A model generated the notes under the pieces. That model was not told the DNA's origin. It worked only from the letters and a program-made list of their open reading frames with translations, and ran no database searches. Source: Prochlorococcus sp. AG-347-I06 (lineage in GTDB: Bacteria; Cyanobacteriota; Cyanobacteriia; PCC-6307; Cyanobiaceae). Taken from it: a DNA stretch of 64,000 nt. Made by a program: the position numbers and the translations under genes. The stretch is taken from positions 19,791 to 83,790 of the forward strand of contig QCBM01000005.1 of NCBI GenBank assembly GCA_003281605.1. The letters are read 5' to 3'. This document shows, in pieces, positions 40,889 through 61,206 of the stretch; the first letter of the stretch is position 1; each line of letters starts with the position of its first letter.

Positions 40889-40960
<72 letters not shown>

Positions 40961-41088
40961 TGGCCAAAAGCATTGCTACAATAGAAGTTATAAGAAATTA
41001 GTTAAAATTGATTATTAGCCAGATATATCTAGATATGTCGACAATATAGCAATTCTGCACTAATATTTGCACTAATTACACTTTTAAA

Positions 41089-42438
41089 ATGACAAGTGCT
41101 AACAGCACTTCTTGGGAAAAAGAATTAAGAAAAAATATCTGCACTAATTTTGGTCGTGGAATTAGGGTTAATGGCGAAAATAGCGGTAGAACAAAACTTT
41201 TATATGTTTATAACGAAGGGCTAGGTTCTGCCAACAAAAGAACCTCTCAAACCTTACCCATCGAATGGAAGAAAACCTCAGGTATAGAAATCCTAAAAGC
41301 TATCGAATTTATAAAACCATTAATAGTTGAAAAAAACCTAACTCTTAAAGAAGCCACTAGAAGATGGAAAGCTCAATTCATTGGAGAAGCAACGAAACAA
41401 CCTAATAAAAGTTGGAATGATTTCTTATTAATAAGGCCTCTAAATAAAAATGATGCCAACTATGAAAAGGACTTAAAAGTTTATCTAAATACTGCATCAA
41501 AGGTTGATCAGTTCATGCAAACCAAACAAGGTTTAACAAGTAAAACTGAAAAAGATTGGGCTAGAAGAATTAGTAGATTCTTAGAAGAAATGAATAATAA
41601 TCCCTCTCCAAATACAGGAGTTGAACTTATAAAGAAATTATCGGATAAATACCTTATTGATATAGAACCTGATGAGAGGAAAAGATATATCAATGCTTGG
41701 TGTGAGATTTTAAAGTATGGAATCGAAAGACATTCACAGAACGAAAAAAGATGGCAACCGCCAAGCGAAGACTATAGAAAAGAACTAATTGGAAAATCTA
41801 ATAGGACTAAACAAGATAAATTAACTCCATATATAGAGGAGCATGATTTACTTAGATTATTAGATGATCTTGAATCAAGAGATTCTTCATTATTTCTAGC
41901 AGTTGGCTTAATTTCTATTTTTGGCTTAAGGCTTTCTGAACTTGCAGTTCTTAGAGCTGTAGATGGCAAACTATATGTTGGTAATATCAAAAATAATATA
42001 AACACAAAAGCAAAAAAGGAAGATAGAAGAGTTTTTCCTATGGATCTTTTGGCGAGGAAAAACCTCGGCCAAAACCTTATAGAACTATTCGAATCAAAAA
42101 AGATTACATTACCGATGCCAGTCTTAAATCAAATAGAAATGGTAAAAGATAAAAATAAATATGGTGATGTTGGTCAATCACTAAGGCAATTAATTGAAAG
42201 GAATAAGGTATGGAGAGAAATAATTAAAACTAACCCTGAAATAACACCTTATAGTTTGAGACATAGATATGCCCATCAATGTCATAAGGGTTCCACTATC
42301 CCAATATCAGTAAAAGATGCGGCGGCGGCAATGGGTCATTCTGTTGAAACTCATAATTCTTTTTATGGTTCTTACACAACGGAACTTAGCTTAGAAAAAG
42401 CATTTGAAAGACATTTAAAAAACAGGATTGAGGTTTAG
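41089..42438 (+). CDS. Tyrosine recombinase/integrase
   Basis: GLRLSEL (catalytic R), YSLRH, MGHS and HNSFY (catalytic Y). Confidence 0.92.
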   Translation: MTSANSTSWEKELRKNICTNFGRGIRVNGENSGRTKLLYVYNEGLGSANKRTSQTLPIEWKKTSGIEILKAIEFIKPLIVEKNLTLKEATRRWKAQFIGEATKQPNKSWNDFLLIRPLNKNDANYEKDLKVYLNTASKVDQFMQTKQGLTSKTEKDWARRISRFLEEMNNNPSPNTGVELIKKLSDKYLIDIEPDERKRYINAWCEILKYGIERHSQNEKRWQPPSEDYRKELIGKSNRTKQDKLTPYIEEHDLLRLLDDLESRDSSLFLAVGLISIFGLRLSELAVLRAVDGKLYVGNIKNNINTKAKKEDRRVFPMDLLARKNLGQNLIELFESKKITLPMPVLNQIEMVKDKNKYGDVGQSLRQLIERNKVWREIIKTNPEITPYSLRHRYAHQCHKGSTIPISVKDAAAAMGHSVETHNSFYGSYTTELSLEKAFERHLKNRIEV

Positions 42439-42775
42439 TTTTAACTGACGTAGGAAGGAATATATGTAGACATATCAATAAGCAGTATTAATATATATTT
42501 AACGCTTAGCGTTCTTCAAAAAAGTGGCTGAGAATTGACCAAATGGTTATGACAGCTTAAGAGCTTATGTTGGTAAAGAGTAGTTGATGTCAAATATCAT
42601 CACCCCAACAGGCAGCCACATAATTGCCAGCCCTAGTACCACCTACGACAAATTTTGGGGTCTTGAAGCATAGTTAAAAAATACTATCGGTTGCTCAGCC
42701 AAGGTACTACAGACTGAGAGACTTATTCATTATTGAGAACGAGTTTGAAGGTCGGGAAAAATATTTTTTAATCTT

Positions 42776-43024
42776 ATGAATAATCAAACTTGGCTGCCCA
42801 CAAGGGAAGCAAAAATAGTTCTAGGTTGTAGTGCCCAATTCCTAAAGAAAAATCGCGATATTTACGGTGGTTTTCTTAGAGAGGAAGACCATTATATTTT
42901 TGGCGCTAGTGTAAACTCTTCCATTCTTTGGAACGTAAAAGAAATTTTAAAAGAGTTTCACTATAGAGGACGGCTTATCAGGAAGGGTCAAGACTTAATA
43001 AGTGAATTACAAAAGGAGGTTTAA
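42776..43024 (+). CDS. Excisionase-like/HTH DNA-binding protein
   Basis: WLPTREAKIVLGCSAQFL winged-helix-like start; lies between integrase and helicase. Confidence 0.65.
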   Translation: MNNQTWLPTREAKIVLGCSAQFLKKNRDIYGGFLREEDHYIFGASVNSSILWNVKEILKEFHYRGRLIRKGQDLISELQKEV

Positions 43025-43026
43025 AA

Positions 43027-44121
43027 ATGAACCCCTCAGATTACACAGGTTGCGACATTGATAAAATACAGCTAATTGATAATGAAAATTATCAAAATCG
43101 TTATCACAATAAATCTTTAAAAGACTACTCCTCGGATGTAGGAAAAGGTCCTGAAAATATAGCTGATTTATTAAAAACAAAAAGTTCAAAAGAATGGATT
43201 GTCGATTCCTTTGGAGCTGGAGGTTCATGCGTTTTACTTGCGGGCGAAACAGGATCTGGTAAAACCTCATTTATTTATCAAATGGCTTATGCAATATCTA
43301 CGGGGAATATTTTTTTGGAAGAAATCACTACCCAAAAAAATAAAGTACTAGTTGTTCAATCAGATGAAAGTAAAAATAATGCTCTTGATAAGTTGGAGTT
43401 AATGGATATAGATGGACCAAACTCCAACCTTTATTTCTATTTCGCAGAAGATGGATGGGACAGACTAAATATTAAAAATCTGAAAGAGGTAGTTTTAAAT
43501 CATTCTTTTAAAGTTGTATTGCTTGATAGCGTTACAACATTATTAACCAATAATGGTCGTTCAATGCGAGATCCTGAATTTGCAACGCCTCTTTATGAAT
43601 TAAATAAATTAGCAAGTGAATTAAATATCCTTATTATTTGTACAGCGCATTTAAGAAAGCCAGAGGGAATTAGACATGAAGTATCTATACATGATGTAAT
43701 TGGAGCAATTACACAGAGTGGAGCTGTTAGCGATATTTGGGGTATTTGGGTACCAACAAAACAAAGCCATGAAAATCACTTTATTTTGAAATGCTTAGGG
43801 AAAAGAAACTGTAGAAAAGGAATTATTTGGAATTTAAAAGGCGATGAAGAAGATTTCAGTTTCACTTTAGAAAGTGTAGGAGAAGGAGAATTATTACCCT
43901 CCAAGAATCAAGAATTAAGTTTCTTGATTCTTGATTTCTTACATACAAAAAATGAATTTAAAACGATAAGAGAAATTGCTAATGCGACTTCGTTTAATCA
44001 GGAACATACTAGACGAATTTGTAAAAAACTTTTTCTAGAAAAAGAAATTTCTAGGGATAAAGATATCTCTAAAGGAGGAAGACCAGCCTGGAGGTACGGA
44101 CCTAAGACTTTTCCTACTTAA
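43027..44121 (+). CDS. RepA/DnaB-like AAA ATPase (replicative helicase-like) with C-terminal wHTH
   Basis: GETGSGKT Walker A, VLLDS Walker B, AHLRK; C-terminal TIREIANAT...RRICKKL...GGRP. Confidence 0.8.
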   Translation: MNPSDYTGCDIDKIQLIDNENYQNRYHNKSLKDYSSDVGKGPENIADLLKTKSSKEWIVDSFGAGGSCVLLAGETGSGKTSFIYQMAYAISTGNIFLEEITTQKNKVLVVQSDESKNNALDKLELMDIDGPNSNLYFYFAEDGWDRLNIKNLKEVVLNHSFKVVLLDSVTTLLTNNGRSMRDPEFATPLYELNKLASELNILIICTAHLRKPEGIRHEVSIHDVIGAITQSGAVSDIWGIWVPTKQSHENHFILKCLGKRNCRKGIIWNLKGDEEDFSFTLESVGEGELLPSKNQELSFLILDFLHTKNEFKTIREIANATSFNQEHTRRICKKLFLEKEISRDKDISKGGRPAWRYGPKTFPT

Positions 44122-44160
44122 GGCCTGTAGTTTAGAAATTTAATTTCTTTAGACAAAAAA

Positions 44161-44184
44161 AAGCCATTTGATATCAAATGGCTT
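44161..44184. terminator. Perfect 24-bp palindrome between convergent genes
   Basis: AAGCCATTTGAT|ATCAAATGGCTT; adjacent A run gives a T tail on the minus strand. Confidence 0.75.
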
Positions 44185-44215
44185 AAGTCCTTTTAATTTT
44201 GAGAGTAGGGTTCAT

Positions 44216-46117
44216 TTATAGAACCCTCCTCAATTCGTCTTCCCCACATTTTTCTATGAAACTTTTTAACTTAGCTGGTGGCCATCCAGTTTTAGCTGTC
44301 AAGATTTTGAATTTTTCTAATTCTTTAATCTCTATTCTTTGGCCATCATAAATATGATGGGTTTCTTTACCACTAGCTGAATGCGTTTCAGCAGATATTG
44401 AGATTGAATCTCTATCACCACCTTCAGAAGGAGGACGATTTCGATCTTCATGCTCAACTACAGATTCGAATTGTGCTTTCTCATCCATTAATGATTCAGC
44501 AAACAATTTGATGTTTACGCTCTCTGGAGATAAGTCTCCATTATCATCAGGGACCAAATCAATTCCATCTTCATACTGGTAGAAGTATGCTGTCTGCATA
44601 TCATGAGATAAGTCAGATTCAGTTCTTAGTATTCTTCCAAGTATTTGAGTCCATCTTAATGATGCCTGAATTGTGGTTAAATAAACTCCAACTCTAAGGA
44701 ACTTAATATCTACTCCTTCAGAAATTTTGCCTACGGCAATAATCCATTTAGGTCTATTCTTAGTTCTATTCGTCTTGAAGTTTTTAATAGCGCGTTTGTC
44801 GTCACCAGTTTCTGAATGAACAACAACAGCTTCTTCATTGGTCCACTTTTTTAAGGCCTTCGCAACTGCATCAGCATGGGGAATACTGTCACAAATAATT
44901 AATCCTCCAGCCCATTCATGCGATCTTCTACATTCATCTAATTGATCGTTTGCAGCGATCAAAATATTACGAACATATTCTGTACCATGTGGATGCCTTT
45001 CAGTACCGCATTCAATACAAGCCTTTCTTCTCAACCTTTTAATGATTTTTCTAAGCCTTCTATTGTCAACGATCCTCTCACCTGTAACTGAATCAAACTG
45101 ACATTCGTAAATTTGATCAATATTATCGGTAAGTTTGTGTTTAACTTTTTGTGCTGAAACAAGTTGGCCATCACGCTTTTCTTTAATAGTAAAATCAACA
45201 ACTCCGTTCCATTGTTTAATAACAACATCTCGGACAACTTGATCACCTAAAGCGCAATACCTCGTATTCCATTTCGTTATTCCATATCCATAGGAATATG
45301 CATGGGGTGGACTTAATTCAATTTGGTTCCTGTAATATCTCACCCAAGGTAATTTTTGACGATCACTTCTAAATGGAGTTCCACTTGTCATTAATCGAGC
45401 AACCGTATTACCAAAAGCTAAAGAGAAACATTCTCCCCATCTTTTTTGTTCACCTAAGTGATGACATTCATCAGCAATAATTAATGTCTTATACCTCTTA
45501 CAAACATCTCGTAAGATTTCAGCATTAACCATATTTCCAGAATCATTGTTCCGATAACCTATTTTTGCGTAAGTAGTAACGATACCGTCAAAACCTTCTG
45601 CGCAAGAATTTTTCTTATTAAGATGCAGACCAATTGTTCTAGCATCATCTTCCATTTGATCTCTTAAAAAATCACTTGGAACAGTAACAATAATTTTTTC
45701 TATAAAACCTTGCTCCTTTAAATATGCACCTATAAGTAGAGAGGCAAGAGTTTTTCCTGATCCTGGGAATGCGTGAAGAATAAAAGCATTTATATCTTCT
45801 TTTGGCTTGTTTATCTGCTGAACCATAGACATATAGCATCTTTGAAGAAATTCTTCTTGCCATTTCCTAAGTTCAAAGCCAGGGGGAAGCCAATTACTTA
45901 CATCTATTTTTAAAGATGCTGATTTTTTAAGATTGCATGATCGGCATAGAGCTTGACCATTACTTAATTCAGTTTTTCCTCCTAATGAATAAGGAGTTAT
46001 GTGATCAGCGTGAAAGTCATCGAGACTTATTTCACATGAGCAATTTTGGCATTTACCTTTTGCTCTTAAAAACAATTCTTGTCTTTGTGATTGAGTAAAG
46101 AATCTGTTGTCAGTCAT
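44216..46117 (-). CDS. HNH endonuclease fused to SF2 (ResIII/DExH-like) helicase
   Basis: CQNC...HADHITP...SNGQALCRSCN; AFPGSGKT, DECHH, SGTPFRSD, EGVDI and QILGRILR. Confidence 0.9.
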   Translation of the reverse strand: MTDNRFFTQSQRQELFLRAKGKCQNCSCEISLDDFHADHITPYSLGGKTELSNGQALCRSCNLKKSASLKIDVSNWLPPGFELRKWQEEFLQRCYMSMVQQINKPKEDINAFILHAFPGSGKTLASLLIGAYLKEQGFIEKIIVTVPSDFLRDQMEDDARTIGLHLNKKNSCAEGFDGIVTTYAKIGYRNNDSGNMVNAEILRDVCKRYKTLIIADECHHLGEQKRWGECFSLAFGNTVARLMTSGTPFRSDRQKLPWVRYYRNQIELSPPHAYSYGYGITKWNTRYCALGDQVVRDVVIKQWNGVVDFTIKEKRDGQLVSAQKVKHKLTDNIDQIYECQFDSVTGERIVDNRRLRKIIKRLRRKACIECGTERHPHGTEYVRNILIAANDQLDECRRSHEWAGGLIICDSIPHADAVAKALKKWTNEEAVVVHSETGDDKRAIKNFKTNRTKNRPKWIIAVGKISEGVDIKFLRVGVYLTTIQASLRWTQILGRILRTESDLSHDMQTAYFYQYEDGIDLVPDDNGDLSPESVNIKLFAESLMDEKAQFESVVEHEDRNRPPSEGGDRDSISISAETHSASGKETHHIYDGQRIEIKELEKFKILTAKTGWPPAKLKSFIEKCGEDELRRVL

Positions 46118-47063
46118 TTTTAAATACCTCCAAAATTTGGTTTGCTAATTGAATTGCGGAATTTTTTCCGATTCTTTTGATAATTTTTTTTGCGACTACT
46201 GATGCGTTACCTCTTACACCTACATAGCTGTAAGTTCCATACGCTTTAGCAAGTCCTGCTTCTCTTTCTGCTGCTGCTACCGAGGGAATTAAACCTCTTA
46301 AAAGTCTGTCCAAAGTATTAGATACTCTTTCAGTAGAGGTCCCTTTGCTTTTGCATAAAGAGGGGTTATTTTTTAATTTTGTTAACCTGCTTATCAAGCG
46401 AGTTTTACTATCACTTGGAAGTGAGTCTTTATCTTTTAAATAACTACTCGATGCTTCAAAGAGATTTGTTTGTACTGGGGCATCTCCTGCTGGTGATGTA
46501 TCTAAGGAATTTAATAATTCCTTTAAACGTTCATGTGCTTTAGACCATTCAGGATCAACTTGTTTCATTAAAGAGAGAAGTGTTTCCCATCCGATCATTT
46601 TGGATTTACCAAATCTAAAATCATCACTTAGCTGCTCCAAAGTATTAGGTTCTTCAGTAGCAATAAGTTCTATTAGATAAGTCACTGCCTCACTTGCATC
46701 TTTAGCTGAAGGTTGATGACCAGTTAAGGTTCTCATCAATTCATCAGGTTCAACGCCAAGACAATCTCTTATCCACTCAACAGCTCTTTTGTATTCCCTT
46801 ACTTCTCTCCTACTTTTGATAGAAGGCATAAAGGCAACTTTTTCCCAAGCTTTTTGCTTGAAACAATCAACTAAGGCAGTTGAAAGTGCTGCTGAATTTT
46901 TAGTAGTCCAGTGCTCTTTGAGTATTTGCGTACTCAGAGTTTTAATTTGTGTATCTCTTGGTAGAGAGGACAACCAGCTTTGAGCTTCAATGGTTGCAGT
47001 TTTTTCGTGTAATGTGTTCACTTTGTTCCTGGGGCTAGGTTTAGATGTAAGCCTTAAGCTCAC
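46110..47063 (-). CDS. Hypothetical protein, translationally coupled to the HNH-helicase
   Basis: 8-bp overlap with the helicase start; GTG at 47063 preceded by GGGAGAG (ORF track starts at TTG 47087). Confidence 0.8.
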   Translation of the reverse strand: MSLRLTSKPSPRNKVNTLHEKTATIEAQSWLSSLPRDTQIKTLSTQILKEHWTTKNSAALSTALVDCFKQKAWEKVAFMPSIKSRREVREYKRAVEWIRDCLGVEPDELMRTLTGHQPSAKDASEAVTYLIELIATEEPNTLEQLSDDFRFGKSKMIGWETLLSLMKQVDPEWSKAHERLKELLNSLDTSPAGDAPVQTNLFEASSSYLKDKDSLPSDSKTRLISRLTKLKNNPSLCKSKGTSTERVSNTLDRLLRGLIPSVAAAEREAGLAKAYGTYSYVGVRGNASVVAKKIIKRIGKNSAIQLANQILEVFKND

Positions 47064-47102
47064 AATCAAATACTCTCCCAAAAGCAACTAAAATATATTT
47101 TT

Positions 47103-47119
47103 TACGTGCGAAAAACCAA
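47103..47119 (-). promoter_or_regulatory. 17-bp motif copy A (TTGGTTTTTCGCACGTA on the minus strand)
   Basis: Exact reverse complement of 49318-49334; upstream of the leftward operon. Confidence 0.75.
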
Positions 47120-47189
47120 TTTTTATGCCAGGATTAGCTTATTAAAATTAAAAAATTTAATTATCAAGTAAATATTTTTTTATCTAAAA

Positions 47190-49316
47190 ATGAATGAGAG
47201 ACTAAGATGTCATATGTTTATTGGAATACCTGCAAGCGGGAAATCAACTCTTGCAAATGAACTGGCGCCATTGATAAATGCAGAGATTTTATCAACAGAC
47301 AAAATTAGAGAAGAACTTTATAAAGACGAAACGATTCAAGGAAATTGGAACGAAATTGAATCTTTACTTCATGAAAGACTTAAAGAATACATAAGACAAA
47401 ATAAGCCAGTTATCCTAGATGCTACTTTTGCAATGAGACCTTGGCGTCTAACAATTACTCAAAATCTTTTATTTGATAAAGAAATTGAATGGATTGGCTG
47501 GTGGTTTAAAACACCATTAGAAATTTGCCTTGAATGGAATCAATTAAGAGAGAGGAAAGTCGATGATCCAGTAATTAAAAGATTTGCGGCAGCCCTCTCA
47601 AATAAAATTTTCTCGCCAGATTTATCTGAAGGTTTTGCAACTTTAATAAATATTGATCCATCATCAACAGAAGATATTACAAAAGAAATTAAAAGCAGAC
47701 TTTCGAATTTAGATAGAAATATTACCCAAAGAAAAAATAAAGATTCAATAAAAGAATTGCACGGATACTCAAAATTATTAGATTTTGAGAGACTTCTATA
47801 TCTAATGCAACTGTTAATTAGATTTCCAGATTTAAGTGCGGATGATAAAAAAACAAAATTAGAAATGGAACAAATATGTAACCCAATACCTCAAGGATCT
47901 ATTGAAAACAAAGCCTCTAAATTTTTAAGTACTTTGCATGGCAGTTGTTATTCTGATATTGAAAAATTACATGATGATCTCAAGTGGCTTGATAAGCAGG
48001 GATTTATTAACCATAAAGAAGCAACAGGTAAGCTTGAGCCGCCTCCTGAAGACAAAAATTTTAATAGAGAACTTGGAGGGCTATCAAGATATTCAGAAAA
48101 AGATGCATTTATTAGAGTCATGTCTTTAATCAGATATATCTTACATAACCCTTTTGATGACAAAAGAATTAAAGATGAAAACAATAAGAAGGGTATTAGT
48201 TTGCACGAACACTATATTTCTAAATTAGAAAATATTTATTTCAAAGAGGAAAGAGATACTCTTAGAAAAGATATTGAAAAAATTCTAACTCCATACGGAT
48301 TTAGGGATAAAAATGATAATACAAGGCATGGTTATGTATTAGGAACTGCAGTTTTATCAAGGAACAGACTTGAAGATATTTTTCAGATTATTGATCAAGC
48401 AAAAAATAAATTAAATGATCCAACCATTTCAAGTGTGCACACTAAATTAAAAGAAAGGTTTAAGTGGGCTGGATTTAATTTAGACAATTATCCAGTCAGA
48501 TCATTTGCAAACAAATCTGTTATTAATCCAACTTTTACAAAAAAAGATTCCTTAGCAGTTGATACAAATACTGAAGAACTTGAAAATGCTATAAAGAATG
48601 GTTTTTTAATTGAAATTGAGTTTTTTAGAAGTGCAGGTAAATTTAACGAAGAAGAAAAAGAAGGTTCTCAAAACAAATTGGTTTGGCCAATCCAACTACT
48701 TTTTAATAATATTGGTTGGTATTTGGCCTATGAAGAAAAAACCTTTAGGGATGAACCTGGTCTTTTAAAAACTGAAAGAATTGATCGTATTGCTCTTAGG
48801 AGAATTGATAACTCAAAAATAAGAAATAGAAAAGATAGAGACAAAGCACTTAGAAAAGTTCAAAAATTGGTAGAAATTTCGGGGAGTATTTATTTTGGTG
48901 AAACTGTTGAAAAACAAATTGCAGTACTAAAAAGTAGTGAAGAAAATATTAAAAAATTACTTATTACAGTTCGCTTCAGAACAACTGAAAAAATATTTCG
49001 CTTTCTTCGAGAAGAACTTCAAAGATATCCCTTAAATCAAATGCGTTTAGCAAAGGGTTCAAAGAAAGTATTTTATGAAAATTGGGAAGAACCAGAAAGT
49101 GGGAACTTTGTACTAGAAATGATTAAAGATGATCCTTACCCATATCCAGTTGAGATAGATTTACCTTCATGGACAGTAAAAAATGATAACGATTTTAGAA
49201 GATGGCTATTAGGTTTTAGAGAGGGAATAATTATTGAAAGTCCTACAGAATTTGTAGAAGAGATTAAGTCAAACATATCAAAACTAGGAGAAATATACAA
49301 AACCAAAAATAATTAA
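47190..49316 (+). CDS. AAA_33/PNK-like P-loop kinase fused to HTH-WYL-WCX domains
   Basis: GIPASGKST, STDKIR and ILDAT; WPIQLLFNNIGWYLAY; FRRWLLGF...IESP. Confidence 0.85.
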   Translation: MNERLRCHMFIGIPASGKSTLANELAPLINAEILSTDKIREELYKDETIQGNWNEIESLLHERLKEYIRQNKPVILDATFAMRPWRLTITQNLLFDKEIEWIGWWFKTPLEICLEWNQLRERKVDDPVIKRFAAALSNKIFSPDLSEGFATLINIDPSSTEDITKEIKSRLSNLDRNITQRKNKDSIKELHGYSKLLDFERLLYLMQLLIRFPDLSADDKKTKLEMEQICNPIPQGSIENKASKFLSTLHGSCYSDIEKLHDDLKWLDKQGFINHKEATGKLEPPPEDKNFNRELGGLSRYSEKDAFIRVMSLIRYILHNPFDDKRIKDENNKKGISLHEHYISKLENIYFKEERDTLRKDIEKILTPYGFRDKNDNTRHGYVLGTAVLSRNRLEDIFQIIDQAKNKLNDPTISSVHTKLKERFKWAGFNLDNYPVRSFANKSVINPTFTKKDSLAVDTNTEELENAIKNGFLIEIEFFRSAGKFNEEEKEGSQNKLVWPIQLLFNNIGWYLAYEEKTFRDEPGLLKTERIDRIALRRIDNSKIRNRKDRDKALRKVQKLVEISGSIYFGETVEKQIAVLKSSEENIKKLLITVRFRTTEKIFRFLREELQRYPLNQMRLAKGSKKVFYENWEEPESGNFVLEMIKDDPYPYPVEIDLPSWTVKNDNDFRRWLLGFREGIIIESPTEFVEEIKSNISKLGEIYKTKNN

Positions 49317-50341: not shown

Positions 50342-51388
50342 ATGACGAACTCAAAATTAAACAATCCGGGTATTATTTATTTCGTGCAAGAAAAAGATCT
50401 TCTCGGATACAGCACTCCTAATTACGTAAAAATTGGCTTAGTTAAAAGCAATGAGATTGGGCGATCAGGAGAGGATAGAAAGGATGAACACCAAACAGGA
50501 AATCCTAGACCTCTCTACATAGCCCACTCAATTACAACTAAAGCAAGTGTTTCAAAATTAGAAAGTTTAATACACCAAAAACTTTCGCTTCACAGGCACA
50601 GAGGTGAGTGGTTTGTAAAACCAAATGGAGAAATAGATCCCTTCATTAAAGAATCAAATCTTATAAATGAACAACTTCAAGATCAATTAAAAAATGATCT
50701 TAAAATTGAAGAACTAAATTCTCAAGTTAGTTCAGGTAAAACCACAAAACCCTCTTCTGAAGCTCAAGACATTCACAATGAATTGCTTAGAGTTATTAAA
50801 GAAAAAAAAGAAATCGAAACTCAAAAGAAAATTATTGAACTAAAGCTAAGACTATTATCTGGTAGTTCAAATAATTCTATTGAGGGAGTATTTCAATGGA
50901 TTTTAAAAAGAGAATCACAAAGATTTGATGCCAAGAATTTTGAAAAAGAAAATCCTGAATTATTTGAAAAATATGCAAAAGAATCTCAAAGCTCAATCTT
51001 TAGAATCCAAAAAATAAATTCCAATATCAATAAAGAATTAATAGAAGAATTAAATAGTAAAGTTAGCCATTTAGATGCCTCTGAAAAGAGCACAAAAATT
51101 GCAAGAAGCAATGAAGCAGAGGATCTTCACAGAGAGTGGCTTACTTTGCTTTCACAACAACAACCTCTTGAACTTAAGAAAGAAAATCTTGTAAATCAAC
51201 TTAAAATATTATGTGATAATAATTCAGGCCTTGAGAATATATGCTCTTGGAAAAGAGAACCAATTAAAAAAATTAAGAAAAGTGATCTATCAGAATTAGA
51301 TAAAGATATAGTTAATAAATATCTTGTAAAGGTAAAATCAACTTCCTCCTTTATGTTAAATACCTTTAGAGCATATAAATTTAAGTAA
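50342..51388 (+). CDS. GIY-YIG superfamily (T5orf172/MUG113-like) nuclease with coiled-coil tail
   Basis: IIYFVQE...VKIG...QTGNP...LESLIHQKL...RGEWF; SD GAGGGAAG. Confidence 0.85.
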   Translation: MTNSKLNNPGIIYFVQEKDLLGYSTPNYVKIGLVKSNEIGRSGEDRKDEHQTGNPRPLYIAHSITTKASVSKLESLIHQKLSLHRHRGEWFVKPNGEIDPFIKESNLINEQLQDQLKNDLKIEELNSQVSSGKTTKPSSEAQDIHNELLRVIKEKKEIETQKKIIELKLRLLSGSSNNSIEGVFQWILKRESQRFDAKNFEKENPELFEKYAKESQSSIFRIQKINSNINKELIEELNSKVSHLDASEKSTKIARSNEAEDLHREWLTLLSQQQPLELKKENLVNQLKILCDNNSGLENICSWKREPIKKIKKSDLSELDKDIVNKYLVKVKSTSSFMLNTFRAYKFK

Positions 51389-51401: not shown

Positions 51402-54380
51402 ATGGCAAAGGAAAATTTTCCATATCAACTTTTCATTGTTGGAGCAGAATATTCCAGAAATGATATTAATCAAAGACTTGTCAATTCAAAAGTAAGTCAG
51501 CAGAGTGGAGTTTCAAGTTTTGCGGATTCATTAATTCTTTTTGCAACATTAGAAAAAGAAGGAAGACCTGAAGAAATACAGTATAAAGATTTTTTTAAAT
51601 TTAAAAACAAAATATTTAGTGAATTAAAGAAAAAAAAAGGAACTTCTGTTTTACCTGTAGAAGGCTATTTCCCAATATTTGAAAAGGGAGAAATTAAATT
51701 TTTCTGGGAAAGTCAAAATCCTTCAGGAAACTTTGGAACCCCAGAAAAACCATTGCTTTCCAAATTAATTAAAGGAGAGCTTAAAGGTTATTTATTTGCT
51801 CGAATTGAGGAGAAAACAAAAGGTAAAAGTAATCGATTTTTATACTGTGGTTCGATAGAAGCAGAAAGTTATGACGACAAAGCAAATGGAGAAAGACCTT
51901 TTGGAGTTAAATTTTCTTGTAATGATATAGGGCCAAAGCATGTAAAAAATGATTTAAAGATTTTACTGGAATGGCGTCCAAAAGATATTTCGACAATTAC
52001 TAAAGCAGAAGAACTTGCTTCTTCTTGTTTGGCAAATGAAAAAGTAAAACTTAAGGAAATAGAGAATGAGCTTTTTTGGAGTGGTTTTGAAACTCCAGAA
52101 TTGGCAACAAAGATATTACTAGAAAAATTTAATAAATACTCACTAGAACCTTCACCATATATATTTACGAAACTTGTCTGTAGACACTTTTCTGGTATCA
52201 ATAAATCCTCTTTTTTTACGCCACAAGTCTTAGAAAATTTTATTTGCAACTTTCTAAAAAATTTAAAAATAAAATCTGTTCTTGATCCATCAATGATAAA
52301 TGGAAGTACTTTATATAAAATTTCAAAAGAATTAAAACCTCAAGAGATTTATGGGTATGAAATAAATAAAGACCTCTTTAGACTATCTGAAGTTTTTAAT
52401 AAAAATGCCACGCTTAAAAATGAATATTTCCCAATTAATCAAGACTTAGAAAAAAGATTTGATTTAATAGTTTCTTTTCCTCCGATGATGATGAGGCATC
52501 CCTCAGTAAATAAAGAGATAATAATAAATGATAAAAAACTTGCATTTAATCTTCACAGAGAGACTGAAATCATATTTTCTTCTTTAAGAAATTTATCTGA
52601 TAATGGTTTAGCATTATTTATTGTTTCTCCAGGCTTTTTATTAAAAACTAGAAGTAGAAATATTTTTGAATTTATAAAAGATATTGGATTCAGTTTAGAA
52701 GGAATTTTTTATATCCCTGCTGGGACTTTCAAACCTTTTTCTGGAATTGAAGGCAGATTGGTAATAATTAAGAAAAAAATTCAATCTAAATTTATATTTG
52801 AAGGACAATTATCTTTTAATAAAGACAGAGATCAAAAATTAATAAATAATTTTTATGAATCTAAAGCTGATGAAGATCCTGAATTAGGTTTTTTAAGAGA
52901 ATTTGAAAGTAAAACTGATTTAAGAGAAGCTATCTTCCTTGAAAAGTTATCGCTAATTAATAAAAATATTGATATTGAGGTTAAACATTTAGAAGAAATA
53001 TCTGAAAGTATTTTCTATGCGACTTTAGAGAAAATAATAGAACATCAAAATTCTATATTTATTTTTCTCAATGGAAATAATAATGTATATGAATATGTAG
53101 CTGACATTGATACCAAAAAATTTGATTCTGGAATTAGGAATCAATCTATAGCGCAAGTAGTTATAAACCCTAAAAGAATTAATAAAAAAGTTTTAGTAAA
53201 AATCCTACAAAGTAAAAGAGGTAAACTTGCTTTTCAAGCTTTAACATCTTCTTTTGCTTCTCCTGGAAGAACAAGAATTTCTTTAAGTTCAATAGGTAAA
53301 TTACTTTTATGTATACCTGATAAAAAAGAGCAAGATCAATTAGAAATAATCGATCAAAAATTATTCGATATTAAATTTAAATTAAGTAACTTCGAAAATA
53401 ATCTTTGGGAAAAAATAGATCAACCCAAAGAATCTATTAAAGAATTTAATAAGATTATTAATCAAAAATATCAAAAGGAAACTAAAGATGATTTAGATAT
53501 AAGAATACTTCCCTTTCCATTGGCAAGTATTCTTCAAACAGTAAAAAGTTTTAATGGTATTCCTATAAAAATGTCATTACATATTGAATATTTCTTTGAG
53601 GCTCTTAGTCAATTTTTGGCAATTTATATAATGAGTGGTTTTTATATTAACGAAGAAGAATTTAATTCAATATGGACAGAAGTCTCAAATTTTCTAAAAG
53701 AAAAAAATCATAATATTGGCTCAAGTACTTTTGGTACCTGGAATATAATTTTTAACCTACTAACGAAAAAAATAAACCAAGATATAAAGGAGGAAGAAAG
53801 TATGAAAGAAGTTTGGCTCAGTAGATTAGCAATAGAAAGCGAAGAATTTTTAAATGTATTAACCGGTAAAAAATTACTTGGGATTTTAATGAGGGCAAAC
53901 AGATTTAGAAATATGTGGAGAGGACATTCAGGAGCAATTGGAGATGATAATGCAAAAGAGAGATACAACACATATAACGAAATGGTAAAAGAAGTTTTAA
54001 ACTTATTTAGAAATTTTTGGATTGAGTCGCCTCTTGTGATTCCTGGAGAAAGTACATATAAAGACGGAAAGTTTGATTATTTTTGCCAATCTGCAATGGG
54101 AGTTACAATGCCCTTACCAAGAAATAAATACAGTTTAAAACAACCTCTTGAAGATGGAATGATGCATATAGTTTCTACTGTAAGTGGGAAATCATGTAAA
54201 TTACTCCCATTAATTAAATTTGGAGAAAGCCCAAGCAAAGTTGATAATGCATGTTATTTCTATAACAGGCGTGATAATGACCAATCACAAAGATGGATTT
54301 CTTATCACAATGAAAATAAACCTGAGAGACCATTTAGTGATCCTGAAGTAAATGCATTACTAGATAAATTAAGTAACTAA
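51402..54380 (+). CDS. DUF3427-like + degenerate N6-adenine methyltransferase + TRD-like + HEPN-like fusion
   Basis: YSRNDI...FFWESQ...FLYCG; FFTP, VLDPSMINGS, YGYEIN, DLIVSFPPM; LLLCIPDKKEQ; RNMWRGH. Confidence 0.7.
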   Translation: MAKENFPYQLFIVGAEYSRNDINQRLVNSKVSQQSGVSSFADSLILFATLEKEGRPEEIQYKDFFKFKNKIFSELKKKKGTSVLPVEGYFPIFEKGEIKFFWESQNPSGNFGTPEKPLLSKLIKGELKGYLFARIEEKTKGKSNRFLYCGSIEAESYDDKANGERPFGVKFSCNDIGPKHVKNDLKILLEWRPKDISTITKAEELASSCLANEKVKLKEIENELFWSGFETPELATKILLEKFNKYSLEPSPYIFTKLVCRHFSGINKSSFFTPQVLENFICNFLKNLKIKSVLDPSMINGSTLYKISKELKPQEIYGYEINKDLFRLSEVFNKNATLKNEYFPINQDLEKRFDLIVSFPPMMMRHPSVNKEIIINDKKLAFNLHRETEIIFSSLRNLSDNGLALFIVSPGFLLKTRSRNIFEFIKDIGFSLEGIFYIPAGTFKPFSGIEGRLVIIKKKIQSKFIFEGQLSFNKDRDQKLINNFYESKADEDPELGFLREFESKTDLREAIFLEKLSLINKNIDIEVKHLEEISESIFYATLEKIIEHQNSIFIFLNGNNNVYEYVADIDTKKFDSGIRNQSIAQVVINPKRINKKVLVKILQSKRGKLAFQALTSSFASPGRTRISLSSIGKLLLCIPDKKEQDQLEIIDQKLFDIKFKLSNFENNLWEKIDQPKESIKEFNKIINQKYQKETKDDLDIRILPFPLASILQTVKSFNGIPIKMSLHIEYFFEALSQFLAIYIMSGFYINEEEFNSIWTEVSNFLKEKNHNIGSSTFGTWNIIFNLLTKKINQDIKEEESMKEVWLSRLAIESEEFLNVLTGKKLLGILMRANRFRNMWRGHSGAIGDDNAKERYNTYNEMVKEVLNLFRNFWIESPLVIPGESTYKDGKFDYFCQSAMGVTMPLPRNKYSLKQPLEDGMMHIVSTVSGKSCKLLPLIKFGESPSKVDNACYFYNRRDNDQSQRWISYHNENKPERPFSDPEVNALLDKLSN

Positions 54381-54422
54381 ATCTAGTGATACAAATTTAC
54401 TTCTTGCTGAACATTATTTTCT
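54329..54422 (+). repeat. 94-bp direct repeat, copy 1 (hairpin 54345-54403)
   Basis: 87/94 identical to 57546-57639 by manual alignment. Confidence 0.95.
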
Positions 54423-54432: not shown

Positions 54433-57390
54433 CTACAGTGATGAATTTATATTTAGGATTAGAAGTCTCCTGGCAAGTGAATGATTTGTATAGTATTTAT
54501 AAACATCAGCATTCAATTTTATTTTATTAGAAAACCTAAAATAATTTGGTAATTTCCCTTTTGTACTTTCATTCCTACTAGCATAAAAGTCATATGCAGA
54601 ACTTGTTATGCTGTAAGTCTTATTATCATTATCTTCAAAAATAGCTGATTTTTTATCCAATCCTGCATAATTTTTAAATTTTAAAATTACATTTTTCCTC
54701 TCATACCATCTTGTATTTAATATTTCTAGTTTATTGTAGTTGGATATTTGTTTAAGCTCTTTAAGCAAAAAGATAATATCTTCAAAAAATTCTTTAGTTG
54801 TTGTCACTTTAATAAGCTGTTCATTCAGCTTTGAACCACTATATTTTTTTTGTTGATAATAATAACTTTCATTATATGCCTGTGAAAAATAATTTTTATT
54901 AAGCAGGAGAACCATTTTACAAAAATCTTCTTTGAAAAATAGATTAACTGTTTTACTTAAAGATTTTCTTGTAAACGCATTAACAGAAGAAATTAACCAC
55001 CACATAAGACTATTTCTGTTTGATGAGTAATAAGGTGAATTTCCATCAATATCTAGATGTTCATAACATTTCAAAAGTAGATCACTAATATTGTCAAAAT
55101 ATTCTTGGTTAATGTTTTCACCTACCATTTCATTCATAAGGTGCCGTGCATGTCGGTTATATGCATCTGCTATAAGTGTCAAAAACAAAGATTTACTTGT
55201 ATCTTTTCTTTCTGACCAATCTTCAGTGACTTTATAGACATCCTCAAATTTATTTTGCCTGATCAATAGTCTTGCAAATGCAGTCATAAATTTAGAGTAT
55301 GGTAATGAGTCAGGAAGAGGGGTATCTAGCGAATCAAAAAATCTGAATCCATATTCACAAGCTCTACTATCTTTAAGTGCATCAAATCTATAAAAAAGCG
55401 TTAATAAAGCATTAGGATCATTTCCATCAGCTGCAAGCTGTAAGTGCTTTATACATTGAAGTTGATCATTAAATTCTTGATAAATCAAACCTATAAGACG
55501 ATAAACAGCAGGTGGGACTGATTGAGCTCTATTTATATCTTTAAAATCCTCAAGATCTTTCAATGCATCTCTTAGTTTTGCAAATGCAACTTCTTTTAAA
55601 TCGTTAGAAACAAGGTCTTCATCTTTAATTTTATAAAAATGTCCTAATGCACCAATTGCCTCATTACAAATCACCCTACAAGTATCATCAACCTGTGTTT
55701 CAGGTCTTAGAAAGCTGAATTTCATCTGATTTGACCAACTATTATTTTCAGAATTTAGTATCGAAATATTCTTATTAATTTGATCATCCTTATAAATATT
55801 CAACCTAAATCTAAGATCTTCATTTAAAGGATATATGCTTAAATAAGATCTAAAGTTATCATTCAATTTTATACAATCCATAGAAGATGTACCCCTGAAG
55901 GCCAATCCCAAGTCCTCAATTTCTGCAATGGATTCAGTAACACTGTCAATATCAACTGAAAGTCTCTTATTAATATCTATTTTTCTAGATTCTCCTAAAA
56001 CAAAAAGTACCTCAAGACAGTCTTTACTTACATTAGATAATGAACCTACAAGTTTTGTAAATGAGAATGAAATAATACTATCTGCACCACATTGAACTGA
56101 TTCAATTAAGCTTGTATTATTTTTCTTTTGGTATCCAATTGCATTTTTTATTGCAAGTGGGTTACAAAATAATTTATTAGAGTAGTCTGAAGCTTCTTCG
56201 TATGAAATTTTTTTTCCTAATTTATCTAAATAAACTTTTTGGAATAATTTTGCAGCACTTTTAAGTTCTAAAGGTCCTAGTGAAATAATACTGCTAGATT
56301 CTCTAATTCTTATTCTTGAAGTTATTATAATTTTCCAATCTCTTGGTAACTCATTTTCAAATTCAGAAAACACCTTATAAATATCACTGGACAGTGTCTC
56401 AAGATTATCTACCCATAATAAAAATCTGTAGTTTCCAAAGGTATTTAAGAAGTCTTCCCAAAGTGAATTAATATCTTTTCCATCTTCAAAGTTAAATACT
56501 TCTTGAAAAATATTATTTTCGCTAAATTCTGTATTAGCGAATTTATAACCTTGCAATAATTGCTCTTTAATTCCCTCCATTGTTAAATTAATAATATCTT
56601 TTCTGACTACACCCTCCTCTAAATATTCCTCTTTCAGTGATGAGTATAAAATACAATCAATTTCTTTAGAATCTTCATCAGAAAACTTTAATTCATTTAA
56701 AACAGACAATGTTAAAGCTGTTTTACCTGTTCCTCCAGCACCAAAAATACTTACACTTGGTTTTCTTGGATTTAATAAATAATTTTTTATTTCCTCTGAA
56801 AGTTTTTCTCTCCCGATAATTTCATCGTAATCAGGCATTGGTAAATTATTCGGAATTTCAGTTAATTTACTCTCTTCTATTTCAACTAGATCAAGGTTCC
56901 CTTTTTTTGCTGCATAATATCTTTCAATTACATTTATAAAACCCAGTTGTTTAATTACAGGATCAAGTGCTAAAGCTTGTACTCTTAGCCAATGAACTGG
57001 GTGATATTCATTCCCAGGGTGAGCGAAAGATTGAGATCTTGTTTTATAAATTTGTAAAACATTTATCAATTGATCTAACCTTTCATAGTATTTTTGTTTC
57101 GAACTTCCCTGTGAAACTTGTTTCGCTAAAGATGGCAATTGAGAAAGATTTGATTTTCTGATTAACTCTTCTTTATTTCTTGGGTTCCTTCTATATGTTT
57201 CTGAGAAATATCTTTTACATTTTAGGCCTGCTCCAGATTCAGTATCAACCGAATCTATATTAGAAATTATTTTATCTACCAAACTTTTCTCTAGAGAACC
57301 TAGAACCATTTGTATTCTAGTTGCATCTAGGAATTGATCATCTTGATCAAACGAGTAGATCTCTTCATTTTCTACTGCGCTTAAAGTCAC
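54433..57390 (-). CDS. NLR-like STAND protein: HEPN-like N-terminus, NB-ARC NTPase, helical C-terminus
   Basis: RSQSFAH (Rx5H); PNNLP...IIGRE; GAGGTGKT; LWVDNLET; IITSR; CNPLAI; TPR-like helices. Confidence 0.8.
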   Translation of the reverse strand: MTLSAVENEEIYSFDQDDQFLDATRIQMVLGSLEKSLVDKIISNIDSVDTESGAGLKCKRYFSETYRRNPRNKEELIRKSNLSQLPSLAKQVSQGSSKQKYYERLDQLINVLQIYKTRSQSFAHPGNEYHPVHWLRVQALALDPVIKQLGFINVIERYYAAKKGNLDLVEIEESKLTEIPNNLPMPDYDEIIGREKLSEEIKNYLLNPRKPSVSIFGAGGTGKTALTLSVLNELKFSDEDSKEIDCILYSSLKEEYLEEGVVRKDIINLTMEGIKEQLLQGYKFANTEFSENNIFQEVFNFEDGKDINSLWEDFLNTFGNYRFLLWVDNLETLSSDIYKVFSEFENELPRDWKIIITSRIRIRESSSIISLGPLELKSAAKLFQKVYLDKLGKKISYEEASDYSNKLFCNPLAIKNAIGYQKKNNTSLIESVQCGADSIISFSFTKLVGSLSNVSKDCLEVLFVLGESRKIDINKRLSVDIDSVTESIAEIEDLGLAFRGTSSMDCIKLNDNFRSYLSIYPLNEDLRFRLNIYKDDQINKNISILNSENNSWSNQMKFSFLRPETQVDDTCRVICNEAIGALGHFYKIKDEDLVSNDLKEVAFAKLRDALKDLEDFKDINRAQSVPPAVYRLIGLIYQEFNDQLQCIKHLQLAADGNDPNALLTLFYRFDALKDSRACEYGFRFFDSLDTPLPDSLPYSKFMTAFARLLIRQNKFEDVYKVTEDWSERKDTSKSLFLTLIADAYNRHARHLMNEMVGENINQEYFDNISDLLLKCYEHLDIDGNSPYYSSNRNSLMWWLISSVNAFTRKSLSKTVNLFFKEDFCKMVLLLNKNYFSQAYNESYYYQQKKYSGSKLNEQLIKVTTTKEFFEDIIFLLKELKQISNYNKLEILNTRWYERKNVILKFKNYAGLDKKSAIFEDNDNKTYSITSSAYDFYASRNESTKGKLPNYFRFSNKIKLNADVYKYYTNHSLARRLLILNINSSL

Positions 57391-57545: not shown

Positions 57546-57639
57546 ACCATTTAGGGGTCCTGAAGTAAATGCATTACTAGATAAATTGAGTAACTAAATC
57601 TAGTAATACAAATTTACTTCTTGCTGCATATTATTTCCT
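57546..57639 (+). repeat. 94-bp direct repeat, copy 2 (hairpin 57562-57620)
   Basis: 3217 bp downstream of copy 1; non-coding here. Confidence 0.95.
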
Positions 57640-57793
57640 CTGGCAATATAAGTAACCGACTCCAAAATTGGCACATCAACATAAGATGTTTCCCTTAATG
57701 GCCAAAAAGAACTGAAGGATTTGAGATCAGGGGATTTAATATTTTTCTTTCGGTTCAGCTGTTAAAAAGCTCCTACACACATACTGATAGACA

Positions 57794-58576
57794 ATGAAAT
57801 TTATTAAGAGACTCAGGTCGCTGCCGGGCGATTCTCTGAGCGTTATACGCCGCACACCGCCACTTGTTTTTGCAATGGCTGTATTATCACTTGGTGGTTT
57901 TATTGGGGCATCAACCGTTCTCGTAAGAGGTTTTCGGATGGTTGAAAATTCAATCACTGTTACTGGTGCTAGTACGGAAAGTTTTGAAAGTGATATTGCC
58001 AAATGGTCCGTTCAGGTCAGGGCTACTGGTAAAACTCAAATTGACTCTTTTAATAAGCACAAAGAGTCAATGAAAAAGACTATAAATTTCCTGAAAGCCA
58101 ATGGAATTGAAGATGGCATTAAACAAGAAGTTTATCTTGGACCAGCGAGCATCAAGGAATATGAAACCAAGCATCCGAAGACAAATGAAATCATAAGAAC
58201 GGAATGGATTACCTATCAGAGTATAGAAATACAAAGCAATGATGTTTATCGCATTCAAAAGACCCACAGCAAGATAACTGAACTTCTTGGTGATGGTGTT
58301 TTAGTAAGACCAAGTTCACCAGAATTTACATATTCAAAGCTTGCTGATAAAAGAGTAGACATGCTCGCCAAGGCTGCAAAAGATGCACGTATCAGAGCTG
58401 AAGCGATTGCTCTTCAGGCAGGATCTGAAGTGGGAGGTTTGAAGAAAGTGAACACTGGAGTATTCCAAATCACAGTTCCTAATTCCACTAGAGTAAGTAG
58501 CTGGGGATCTTATGATACTACAACAATCAAGAAAGATATTACTGCTGTAATGGGGGTAACTTTCGCTGTTAAATAA
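57794..58576 (+). CDS. SIMPL (DUF541) domain periplasmic protein
   Basis: ITVTGAS, AAKDARIRAEAIA, GVFQI and KDITAV motifs; N-terminal TM. Confidence 0.88.
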   Translation: MKFIKRLRSLPGDSLSVIRRTPPLVFAMAVLSLGGFIGASTVLVRGFRMVENSITVTGASTESFESDIAKWSVQVRATGKTQIDSFNKHKESMKKTINFLKANGIEDGIKQEVYLGPASIKEYETKHPKTNEIIRTEWITYQSIEIQSNDVYRIQKTHSKITELLGDGVLVRPSSPEFTYSKLADKRVDMLAKAAKDARIRAEAIALQAGSEVGGLKKVNTGVFQITVPNSTRVSSWGSYDTTTIKKDITAVMGVTFAVK

Positions 58577-59475: not shown

Positions 59476-61206
59476 GTGGAAAATGATGAAATAAAATATA
59501 AAAAAGATATACCTCTTGAATGGCTCAAGATGCCCTCAAGTGCAAAGGAAGCTGAAAAATTAAATATAAAAAAATATTTTAATGGTTTAATGTGCAGAAA
59601 AGGTAGTCATTACTCTCCTCTTTATCAAAGTAATGGACAAGGTAAAGGTTGTGTAACGTGTAAATCAATTAGATCAAAAGAAAAAACAAGATTAAAAAAT
59701 GAAAAACTAGGAATTGAGCCATATACCCTTGAGAGTTTTATAAGAGAAGCAAATGAAGTTCATAACGGGTATTACTCTTACGATCTAATTAATTCTTTTC
59801 GTTTTAAAAAAGATTATTATTTGATAAATTGTCCAGACCCAGAGCATAAGCCATTTAGACAAAGAGGAACTAAACATTTAACAGGACAAGGATGTAAATT
59901 ATGTAATCAAAAAAAATGGATTTCAAAGCAAGTTCTACCTTTTGATAAGTTTATTGAGCGATGTAAAAAAATCCATAATGAGAGATATGACTTATCGAGA
60001 ATTTCTTACAGAAATTTACATGACAAGATAAAAGTTGGTTGCAAAATTGAGGGCCATGGATTTTTTGAGACTGAAGCAAATAATTTTATGCGAGGCTTAA
60101 GTAATTGCAAATTATGTTCTGCTAAAGCAACTAGTATTAGATGTAGAAAAACAACCGAAGAGTTTATTAAAAAAGCTAAGAAAAAGCATAGAGATAATTA
60201 TGATTATTCATTAGTAAATTACATAACAAATAAAACTAATATTCTTATCAAATGTAAAAAGCCAGATCATGGAATATTTCCTCAATTACCTCATACTCAT
60301 TTAAAAGGGGTTGGTTGCCCTAAATGTGCAAAAGAATTAACGGCTAAAAAACTTTCTCTTACGATGGATGAATTTTTAAGAAGAGCAAAAGAAAAACATG
60401 GAGATCTTTATGATTACTCAAAAGTTAAGTTATCAAAAAAATCGCCTTCTCATTCTCCTGTTCAAATAATCTGCAGGGTACATAAAGAATTTAATCAAAC
60501 ACCTTCACTTCACTTCAGGAGTGGTTGTAGAAAGTGTCATATGGAATATTTATGGAATGAGTTGAGACCCATTGGTAAAGAGGAGTGGATAAGAAAATCA
60601 CAAGAACAACATTCAAATAAATATTCTTATGAATTAGTAAAAGATTTCTCGAAAGTTACTCAAAACAGAGTAAAAATAACCTGCCCATTGCATGGACCTT
60701 TTGAACAACAAGCGAGGGATCATATGAGTGGAAGAGGATGCCAAAAATGTGGTGATTTAAATAGAGGAAGAGACTCATACAATACTTTTAAATCTGATGA
60801 ATTATGGGCCTCAATCCCAACTGATTTTTATTTTGTCGAAGTTGATAATAGTTATTTAAAATTTGGCATCACAGTTGACTTTGAAGATCGCTCTAGGTCT
60901 AGGTATACAGATTGTTTTTATCGAATTGAGCTTGATAGAGCTAGTGCTTGGACGTTAGAACAGTATATGTATCTCGTTACCTTATGGGCTAAACCCACCT
61001 CACTGCCAGATACATTGGCTTCATGGGGCGGAAATACTGAGTTAAGAACTAAAGAATTGCCAATAAAAGAAATTATTGAAAGTCTAGATAATCTTATTTC
61101 AATTATCGAACAAAAAGGATGGGAAGATTTTTTAAATACCTATGTCTTATCGAATAGCTTGCTATCATCTCTTCCCTTGAATCAAAAAATTAGATTAACT
61201 GAATAA
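59476..61206 (+). CDS. DUF723-like zinc-finger repeat protein with C-terminal GIY-YIG-like domain (homing-endonuclease-like)
   Basis: Five F-x3-(A/C)-x3-H-x3-Y...C-x-x-H...CxxC repeats; FYFVEV...LKFGIT...R...EQ. Confidence 0.75.
   Translation: MENDEIKYKKDIPLEWLKMPSSAKEAEKLNIKKYFNGLMCRKGSHYSPLYQSNGQGKGCVTCKSIRSKEKTRLKNEKLGIEPYTLESFIREANEVHNGYYSYDLINSFRFKKDYYLINCPDPEHKPFRQRGTKHLTGQGCKLCNQKKWISKQVLPFDKFIERCKKIHNERYDLSRISYRNLHDKIKVGCKIEGHGFFETEANNFMRGLSNCKLCSAKATSIRCRKTTEEFIKKAKKKHRDNYDYSLVNYITNKTNILIKCKKPDHGIFPQLPHTHLKGVGCPKCAKELTAKKLSLTMDEFLRRAKEKHGDLYDYSKVKLSKKSPSHSPVQIICRVHKEFNQTPSLHFRSGCRKCHMEYLWNELRPIGKEEWIRKSQEQHSNKYSYELVKDFSKVTQNRVKITCPLHGPFEQQARDHMSGRGCQKCGDLNRGRDSYNTFKSDELWASIPTDFYFVEVDNSYLKFGITVDFEDRSRSRYTDCFYRIELDRASAWTLEQYMYLVTLWAKPTSLPDTLASWGGNTELRTKELPIKEIIESLDNLISIIEQKGWEDFLNTYVLSNSLLSSLPLNQKIRLTE

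Follow-up and report, generated by a model that had tools for sequence, protein, structure and literature searches.

A putative HEPN-STAND-TPR immune receptor with a cold-shock-like C-terminal domain in a Prochlorococcus genomic island

The stretch of 64,000 nucleotides from Prochlorococcus sp. AG-347-I06 analyzed here (contig QCBM01000005.1, positions 19,791 to 83,790; in the following, the window) encodes a protein of 985 residues, which is probably a single-chain STAND (NLR-like) immune receptor working as an abortive-infection RNase switch against phages. The gene (54433..57390, minus strand) is an uninterrupted open reading frame (ORF) with a GTG start, and its product is composed, in this order, of a HEPN-like domain, a STAND nucleoside triphosphatase (NTPase), a winged helix, TPR-like helices, and a cold-shock-like OB domain. 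The features within the gene are given below in window coordinates and all lie on the minus strand. An earlier note on this DNA had read the protein as a HEPN-like effector with an NB-ARC-type STAND switch and a helical sensor, encoded by Prochlorococcus. Both this layout and the origin hold up, and the ORF and all motifs that it named are in place, with RSQSFAH at aa 118-124, GAGGTGKT at aa 217-224, LLWVDNLE at aa 324-331, IITSR at aa 355-359, and CNPLAI at aa 409-414. Overlooked were the C-terminal cold-shock-like OB domain and a partner gene present in the nearest relatives.

A database search found 25 homologues of the 985-residue protein, about 20 of them full length with identities of 34-98%, together with more distant NB-ARC proteins. 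The homologue starts coincide with the GTG start and the residues upstream of Met28 are conserved, indicating that the long start is the right one. From the alignment of the about 20 full-length relatives, we predicted a full-length AlphaFold2 model with a mean predicted local distance difference test (pLDDT) score of 77.9.

The protein is a STAND (NB-ARC-like) NTPase. Its P-loop NTPase core (aa 190-372, 56275..56823) is recognized by the Pfam families AAA_16 and NB-ARC, by Foldseek, and by motifs that are invariant in alignments A1 and A3, the latter comprising 48 divergent family members with 19-23% identity to the window protein. The Walker A motif GAGGTGKT (56719-56742) is invariant in both alignments, with G219, G220, G222, K223, and T224 unchanged in all 48 homologues. 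The Walker B motif LLWVDNLE (56398-56421), likewise invariant in A1 and A3, follows the pattern D-x-x-E and not DD/DE; D328 and N329 are invariant, and E331 is invariant in A1 and present in at least 90% of the sequences in A3. Little or no variation is seen in the TSR sensor-1 motif within IITSR (T357-S358-R359, 56314-56328) and in N410, P411, L412, A413, and I414 of the CNPLAI motif (56149..56166), which lies in the helical ARC1 subdomain and corresponds to GLPL/GxP of NB-ARC proteins. The winged-helix subdomain (aa 453-520, 55831..56034), assigned from the AlphaFold2 secondary structure, ends in a conserved NDNFRSYL sequence at the position of the NB-ARC MHD motif. No His is found there; R514 is invariant, and N512, F513, R514, Y516, and L517 are all invariant in alignment A1.

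The Pfam matches of the window protein to AAA_16 (E value 9.6e-5) and NB-ARC (E value 2.2e-3) are both sub-threshold, and searches with Pfam, NCBIfam, PADLOC, and PHROGs gave nothing beyond weak P-loop matches. Among the 48 relatives, 41 match NB-ARC (best E value 6.8e-11), 43 match AAA_16, and 3 weakly match NACHT, and the proteins P0022 to P0025 bear PF00931 in precomputed annotation. The best Foldseek matches of the full model are the tomato NRC3 resistosome (2.2e-7), MalT (8.8e-6), and the archaeal STAND ATPase PAB2304 (2.1e-5), followed by CED-4 (5.4e-5), Orc1/Cdc6, the TIR-NLR WRR4A (7.6e-4), and then many TPR proteins. The closest structural counterparts of the NTPase-ARC module are the plant and animal NB-ARC proteins (NRC3, CED-4/Apaf-1), which share the P-loop, the TTR-like motif (TSR), and the GLPL-like motif (NPLA). 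They differ from the window protein in effector and sensor and show an identity of only 12-13%, and the window protein has an invariant Arg in FRSY in place of the MHD His.

The N-terminal all-alpha domain (aa 16-165, 56896..57345) is a putative Swt1-like HEPN RNase, supported by the AlphaFold2 model, the family profile, and sub-threshold matches to PF18731. With the motif, the helix topology, these matches, and the literature of 2013 taken together, we are fairly confident that it belongs to the HEPN domains. The AlphaFold2 model of the domain alone has helices at residues 16-43, 53-66, 99-121, and 132-163, where R118 of the Rx5H motif RSQSFAH (57019..57039), the predicted catalytic motif, is located at the end of helix 99-121 and H124 in the loop before the helix starting at residue 132. 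In HEPN domains, the motif is described at the junction of a long helix with the loop after it, often with a second conserved acidic residue upstream (PMC3710099). An invariant acidic residue of the window family, E34 (57289..57291, alignments A3 and A7), is found on the first long helix. RSQSFAH is the sole R-x(4-6)-H sequence in the 985 residues, which include 9 His in all. A lone Rx5H could arise by chance; its significance derives from E34, R118, and H124 being the only invariant N-terminal columns in the 48 homologues, at identities of 19-68%.

A hidden Markov model (HMM) built from residues 1-186 was run in an exhaustive search of 1.84 billion representative proteins and retrieved at least 177 clusters, formed at 50% identity. 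Nearly all of them are proteins of about 900 residues with the domain at the N-terminus, indicating one family with one architecture and not a promiscuous domain. The family motif consensus, h-h-I-R-N-A-x-S-H-P-N-R-P-F, is the classic HEPN RNxxxH, which is found in all 106 full-length family representatives (106/106), with Asn directly following the catalytic Arg in at least 90% of the family. In the marine picocyanobacterial clade, one inserted residue turns the motif into Rx5H, and the Arg is mostly followed by Ser, although the close relative P0009 retains RN. The earlier note was right that the window copy lacks the RN dipeptide, having Ser in place of Asn, but its doubt about activity is largely removed, since the family ancestor carries RNxxxH and the Arg and His stay invariant.

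Two of eight distant N-terminal domains match the PF18731 HEPN_Swt1 family over nearly the full profile (E values 0.006 and 0.043), below the 27.5-bit cut-off. Profile searches against PDB sequences with narrow and broad alignments of the N-terminal domain gave only noise (such as Thg1 and a designed TPR protein), and a word-indexed search for relatives labeled with PF18731, in which the broad profile of this domain served as the query, returned only 11 short fragments, none of them Pfam labeled. Structure prediction, which the earlier note had put forward as a check, supports the STAND/NB-ARC fold through the Foldseek matches of the AlphaFold2 model, but leaves the N-terminal model without a significant fold match.

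The C-terminal part, described in the earlier note as about 450 residues of helical sequence, is instead resolved by AlphaFold2 into the winged helix (about aa 453-520), TPR-like helices spanning about 360 residues (about aa 524-880), and a region of about 95 residues that is rich in beta structure (aa 890-985). The TPR-like helical repeats (54751..55821) are the presumed sensor, with pLDDT values of mostly 84-96 and Foldseek matches to TPR proteins, and Pfam TPR families are matched in up to 12 of the 48 relatives. The beta-rich domain (54436..54723) has strands at residues 898-909, 915-919, 925-929, and 958-964 and resembles a divergent cold-shock-like OB domain in both the AlphaFold2 model and the family profile. 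This C-terminal profile, A4, was built from 40 family members; in the PDB, it matches about 20 bacterial cold-shock proteins in one common register. CspLA ranks first (E value 0.003), with A4 positions 46-103 aligned to cold-shock protein residues 11-65. Similarity to the cold-shock RNP1 and RNP2 motifs is seen in the family pattern [FY]LFAxD...YF[LV]H, a true S1 domain is added in one relative (8e-11), and the Pfam domain CSD is present in more distant NB-ARC relatives. The window copy has another residue in place of the RNP2-like His, making nucleic acid binding less certain there.

Taking Avs and other STAND receptors as models, and with HEPN RNases typically working as dimers (PMC3710099), we infer a mechanism in four steps. 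At rest, the protein would be a closed, ADP-bound monomer. The C-terminal module of TPR-like helices and cold-shock-like OB domain would recognize a phage ligand, which may be a protein or possibly a single-stranded nucleic acid, and this recognition would trigger nucleotide exchange in the NB-ARC-type P-loop and oligomerization. The N-terminal HEPN domains would thereby be paired, so that two Rx5H motifs from two chains form a composite RNase site, predicted to be metal independent, and cleavage of bulk RNA would halt the infected cell and, with it, the phage. The genomic context described below makes a phage-triggered RNase likely. A more daring version, to which we give no more than an outside chance, is that the TPR-like region and the OB domain sense phage single-stranded RNA or DNA directly, and not a phage protein, to fire the cis-linked HEPN RNase, coupled in marine picocyanobacteria to the DNA-directed T5orf172 nuclease of the overlapping partner gene. 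If true, the receptor would be a bacterial NLR that senses nucleic acid and has effectors acting on both RNA and DNA.

The family is spread over Cyanobacteria, Gamma- and Betaproteobacteria, Bacteroidota, Verrucomicrobia, Firmicutes, and others, with members found in Nostocales and in Vibrio/Photobacterium. The annotated contexts of relatives contain MmeI-type restriction-modification (RM), bNACHT, Schlafen/AlbA_2, and Mrr-helicase genes; the metagenomic contigs of P0031 and P0043 are too short to show a context. The 145 nearest neighbors, taken from 38 genomes, include MADS (mad2/3/8), AriA/AAA_21, AbiLi, SIR2, and HerA, and also type I and type IIG RM, dGTPase, PtuA, and integrases. Several members are carried on mobile elements. 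One is found on the Acinetobacter baumannii plasmid pABLAC1 (locus L085, 4646-7318), where it takes up about one-third of the 8-kb plasmid beside a RelE/ParE pair. Others are cargo of P2-like prophages (L086, 8001-10741; L087, 4432-7173; L088, 512-3253), the Klebsiella copy having one frameshift and the copies in two other contigs being intact. No family member was found in the phage collection searched, and no near-identical copy in complete E. coli genomes.

In the freshwater metagenome loci L002-L005, the STAND gene is split into two ORFs of 760 and 216 residues, which overlap by about 20 nucleotides. As four samples share the identical arrangement, it is either a frameshift that has become fixed or a truly split gene. 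Genes for bNACHT and Schlafen/AlbA_2 are located nearby.

In the closest relatives, the stop codon of the STAND gene is overlapped by 4-8 nucleotides by a partner gene encoding 452-459 residues (L001, 12957-14327; L006, 3249-4616; L008, 3134-4492; L009, 5374-6753). The partner protein combines a CoiA_N-like zinc ribbon with a C-terminal T5orf172/MUG113 domain (both T5orf172 and MUG113 belong to the GIY-YIG nuclease clan of Pfam) and is conserved in L001, L006, L008, and the distant L009 across identities of 34-71%. It is absent from the whole 64-kb window in a tblastn search, and neither L010 nor the about 50 loci of the wider family have it, which makes the solo gene the ancestral and commonest state. 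The partner is a clade-specific addition without a counterpart in the window lineage. The T5orf172 gene encoded elsewhere in the window (50342-51388) was considered as the missing partner and ruled out (BLASTP E value 0.41).

The STAND copy of Prochlorococcus sp. AG-355-P18 is 98.6% identical to the window gene, and the two differ by 26 synonymous and 14 non-synonymous changes. The ratio of non-synonymous to synonymous polymorphism (pN/pS) is 0.13, a value by which the window gene is under purifying selection. Sequences nearly identical to it occur in many marine metagenomes, and four metatranscriptomes contain scattered low-depth contigs over the STAND gene, weak evidence of transcription, as it consists of contigs and not of reads.

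A separate high-depth patch at 57630-57890 begins shortly upstream of the SIMPL/DUF541 gene (57794-58576) and extends into it; the contig depth in three metatranscriptomes is 36-250 there, whereas the STAND gene has 1-13. The patch matches no Rfam family and could be an abundant 5' untranslated region or a small RNA.

The variable region of the window starts at tRNA-Tyr and tRNA-Thr (40797-40961), followed by genes of the island hallmark type (40797-49316, tRNAs included), which encode a 449-residue integrase-like protein, an AAA_25 primase/helicase-like protein, an HNH and ResIII helicase, and a 708-residue AAA_33 kinase-like protein. The gene for the T5orf172/MUG113 protein of the window (348 residues, 50342-51388, plus strand) appears to form an operon with two small ORFs and the gene for a 992-residue N6-methyltransferase/target recognition domain (TRD) protein (51402-54380, plus strand), which is convergent with the STAND gene. 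The STAND gene is placed beside N6-methyltransferase/TRD, T5orf172, and HNH-helicase genes in a tRNA-adjacent island, a defense-type context. The 992-residue RM-like protein contains an N6_Mtase domain (aa 267-461) and a type I specificity-like region (aa 509-658) and has a C-terminal RNMWRGHSG sequence of the Rx5H type, and its C-terminal region may be a second HEPN-type domain. The allele of this methyltransferase in AG-355-P18 is inverted and only 25% identical, and retains RN-YHAHSG.

The region of the STAND gene fits the tRNA-seeded island or tycheposon model of Prochlorococcus (Hackl et al.). The 64-kb window contains no partial-tRNA (att-like) repeat, so that no bounded integrative element can be defined. 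A 69%-identical STAND allele in another Prochlorococcus genome lies in the same island and adjoins the same integrase-like gene, and the flanks of the window match other Prochlorococcus assemblies at 95-96%. A repeat search and alignment identified a direct repeat of about 95 nucleotides, the two copies of which are about 95% identical and bracket the STAND gene. The left copy (54329..54422, plus strand) covers the final 17 methyltransferase codons and 42 nucleotides downstream, and the right copy (57546..57639, plus strand) is located 156 nucleotides upstream of the STAND start codon. One metatranscriptome contig joins 57527 to 54325. The bracketing repeat may be the scar of a cassette insertion or exchange.

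Two further features of the window lie away from the STAND gene. An ORF of 576 residues with internal Cys-rich repeats (59476-61206, plus strand) gives strong matches to the phage endonuclease family phrog_681 (3e-71) and to phrog_559, which is annotated as an HNH endonuclease. A Glutamine-II riboswitch aptamer is found at full length at 14306-14363 on the plus strand (63.7 bits).

A number of observations weigh against an immune RNase receptor. At the N-terminus, Pfam finds no HEPN family in the window protein or in the N-terminal domains of 12 close relatives, and the best Foldseek match of the N-terminal model has an E value of about 2, with Csm6 at rank 50 and a template modeling (TM) score of 0.36. 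The AlphaFold2 confidence is lowest exactly at the Rx5H motif (pLDDT below 50), and the window copy has Ser119 where a HEPN domain is expected to have a polar N, D, or H after the Arg. The switch region misses the gathering score of PF00931 NB-ARC, with 17.7 bits against a cut-off of 23.5. The PADLOC check proposed in the earlier note came out empty, as the window protein matches no PADLOC v2 model, and our literature search found no experimental study of the HEPN-STAND-TPR-S1/CSP family. Regarding the context, many of the 145 neighbors of relatives are housekeeping genes, and the counts have no control set behind them. The metatranscriptome signal could stem from DNA carry-over. Finally, the overlapping zinc ribbon-T5orf172 partner of the closest relatives is missing here, and the solo gene might be incomplete.

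This last point can be developed into a different explanation, in which the window gene is the orphaned half of a two-gene system of the marine clade, the partner of about 455 residues being the true effector or an essential cofactor and the window copy, having lost it, being inert or changed in function. The 4-8-nucleotide overlap with the STAND stop codon in L001, L006, L008, and L009 and the absence of the partner from the window and from L010 would agree with it. We nevertheless consider it unlikely, since the about 50 solo loci of the wider family have no conserved neighbor, and two genomes carry the solo copy in intact form, with a pN/pS of 0.13; it also occurs in many metagenomes and keeps its HEPN residues. 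The protein could also be a non-immune STAND regulator of RNA metabolism, binding or processing host RNA on a cellular signal, such as stress, without any phage. According to a STAND census (PMC13581612), STAND clades switch repeatedly between defense and non-defense roles, and an OB domain of the RNA-binding type as well as the housekeeping neighbors of several relatives would suit such a regulator. Its distribution, however, is patchy and horizontally transferred across phyla, with prophage and plasmid carriage; the gene occupies a hypervariable island, is absent from most Prochlorococcus genomes, and encodes no DNA-binding output domain, so that this role seems improbable to us.

Very unlikely, in our judgment, is a selfish, addiction-like module, in which RNase toxicity is released when the island, plasmid, or prophage is disturbed, favoring retention of the element. 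The member on the 8-kb plasmid next to a RelE/ParE toxin-antitoxin pair, the prophage morons, and the 95-nucleotide direct repeats bracketing the window gene could be explained in this way, but no antitoxin-like partner is conserved, and a large sensor with an NTPase switch typifies ligand-activated receptors and not toxin-antitoxin modules. We retain the phage-responsive STAND receptor as the probable function.

The architecture has been catalogued before. Table 1 of Anantharaman et al. (2013, Biol Direct 8:15; PMC3710099) lists 'STAND-ATPase, TPR, S1' fusions under Swt1-like HEPN, and the same paper also mentions bacterial proteins with an N-terminal HEPN domain, a STAND NTPase, and a C-terminal cold-shock-like OB domain. 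The named examples are Npun_F6454, MED222_16016, and Desac_1927, with a motif described as 'mostly active' (PMC3710099); the window protein is likened to them by this description of their architecture. The 2013 fusions and the window family have the same order of four modules and a conserved RNxxxH, and both occur in cyanobacteria and Vibrio. The Prochlorococcus clade differs in its Rx5H motif with Ser for Asn and in a degenerate OB domain with the RNP2-like His lost, and the T5orf172 partner gene of the sister lineages is not mentioned in the 2013 paper. The finding is real and the earlier note was largely right, but with the architecture on record since 2013, the protein is less novel than the note implied. 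The new elements are the RNxxxH consensus throughout the family, the presence of a cold-shock-like domain in the marine clade, a partner gene that is optional, and the settings in prophages, plasmids, and islands.

Among the characterized systems, Avs/AVAST (Gao et al. 2020, 2022; PMC13581612) is similar in its tripartite layout of effector, STAND, and TPR-like sensor within a single gene and in its location in defense islands and mobile elements, whereas the window protein has a HEPN effector and an extra OB domain. The PADLOC v2 HMMs of Avs types 1-5 do not match the window protein, and Avs4 matches weakly in 1 of the 48 relatives (1e-4). The bNACHT proteins (Kibby et al., bioRxiv 10.1101/2022.07.19.500537) are STAND receptors as well, and HEPN RNases are listed among their enzymatic effectors; their NTPase is of the NACHT type, in contrast to the NB-ARC/AP-ATPase-like NTPase of the window protein. 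Other HEPN systems have been validated by the DefensePredictor study. The text of the STAND census mentioned above, published in 2026 and covering 589 clades (PMC13581612), does not name the family.

The family bears on the question of whether an OB-fold nucleic acid binder can belong to a STAND sensor. It is widespread, missing from PADLOC v2, and, as far as we found, without an experimental study, and one good experiment would consequently annotate many genes. The genomes of high-light Prochlorococcus are streamlined and have few recognized anti-phage systems, and an intact, mobile gene for a putative NLR-like RNase in a variable island is therefore a concrete candidate for cyanophage resistance in some of these cells.

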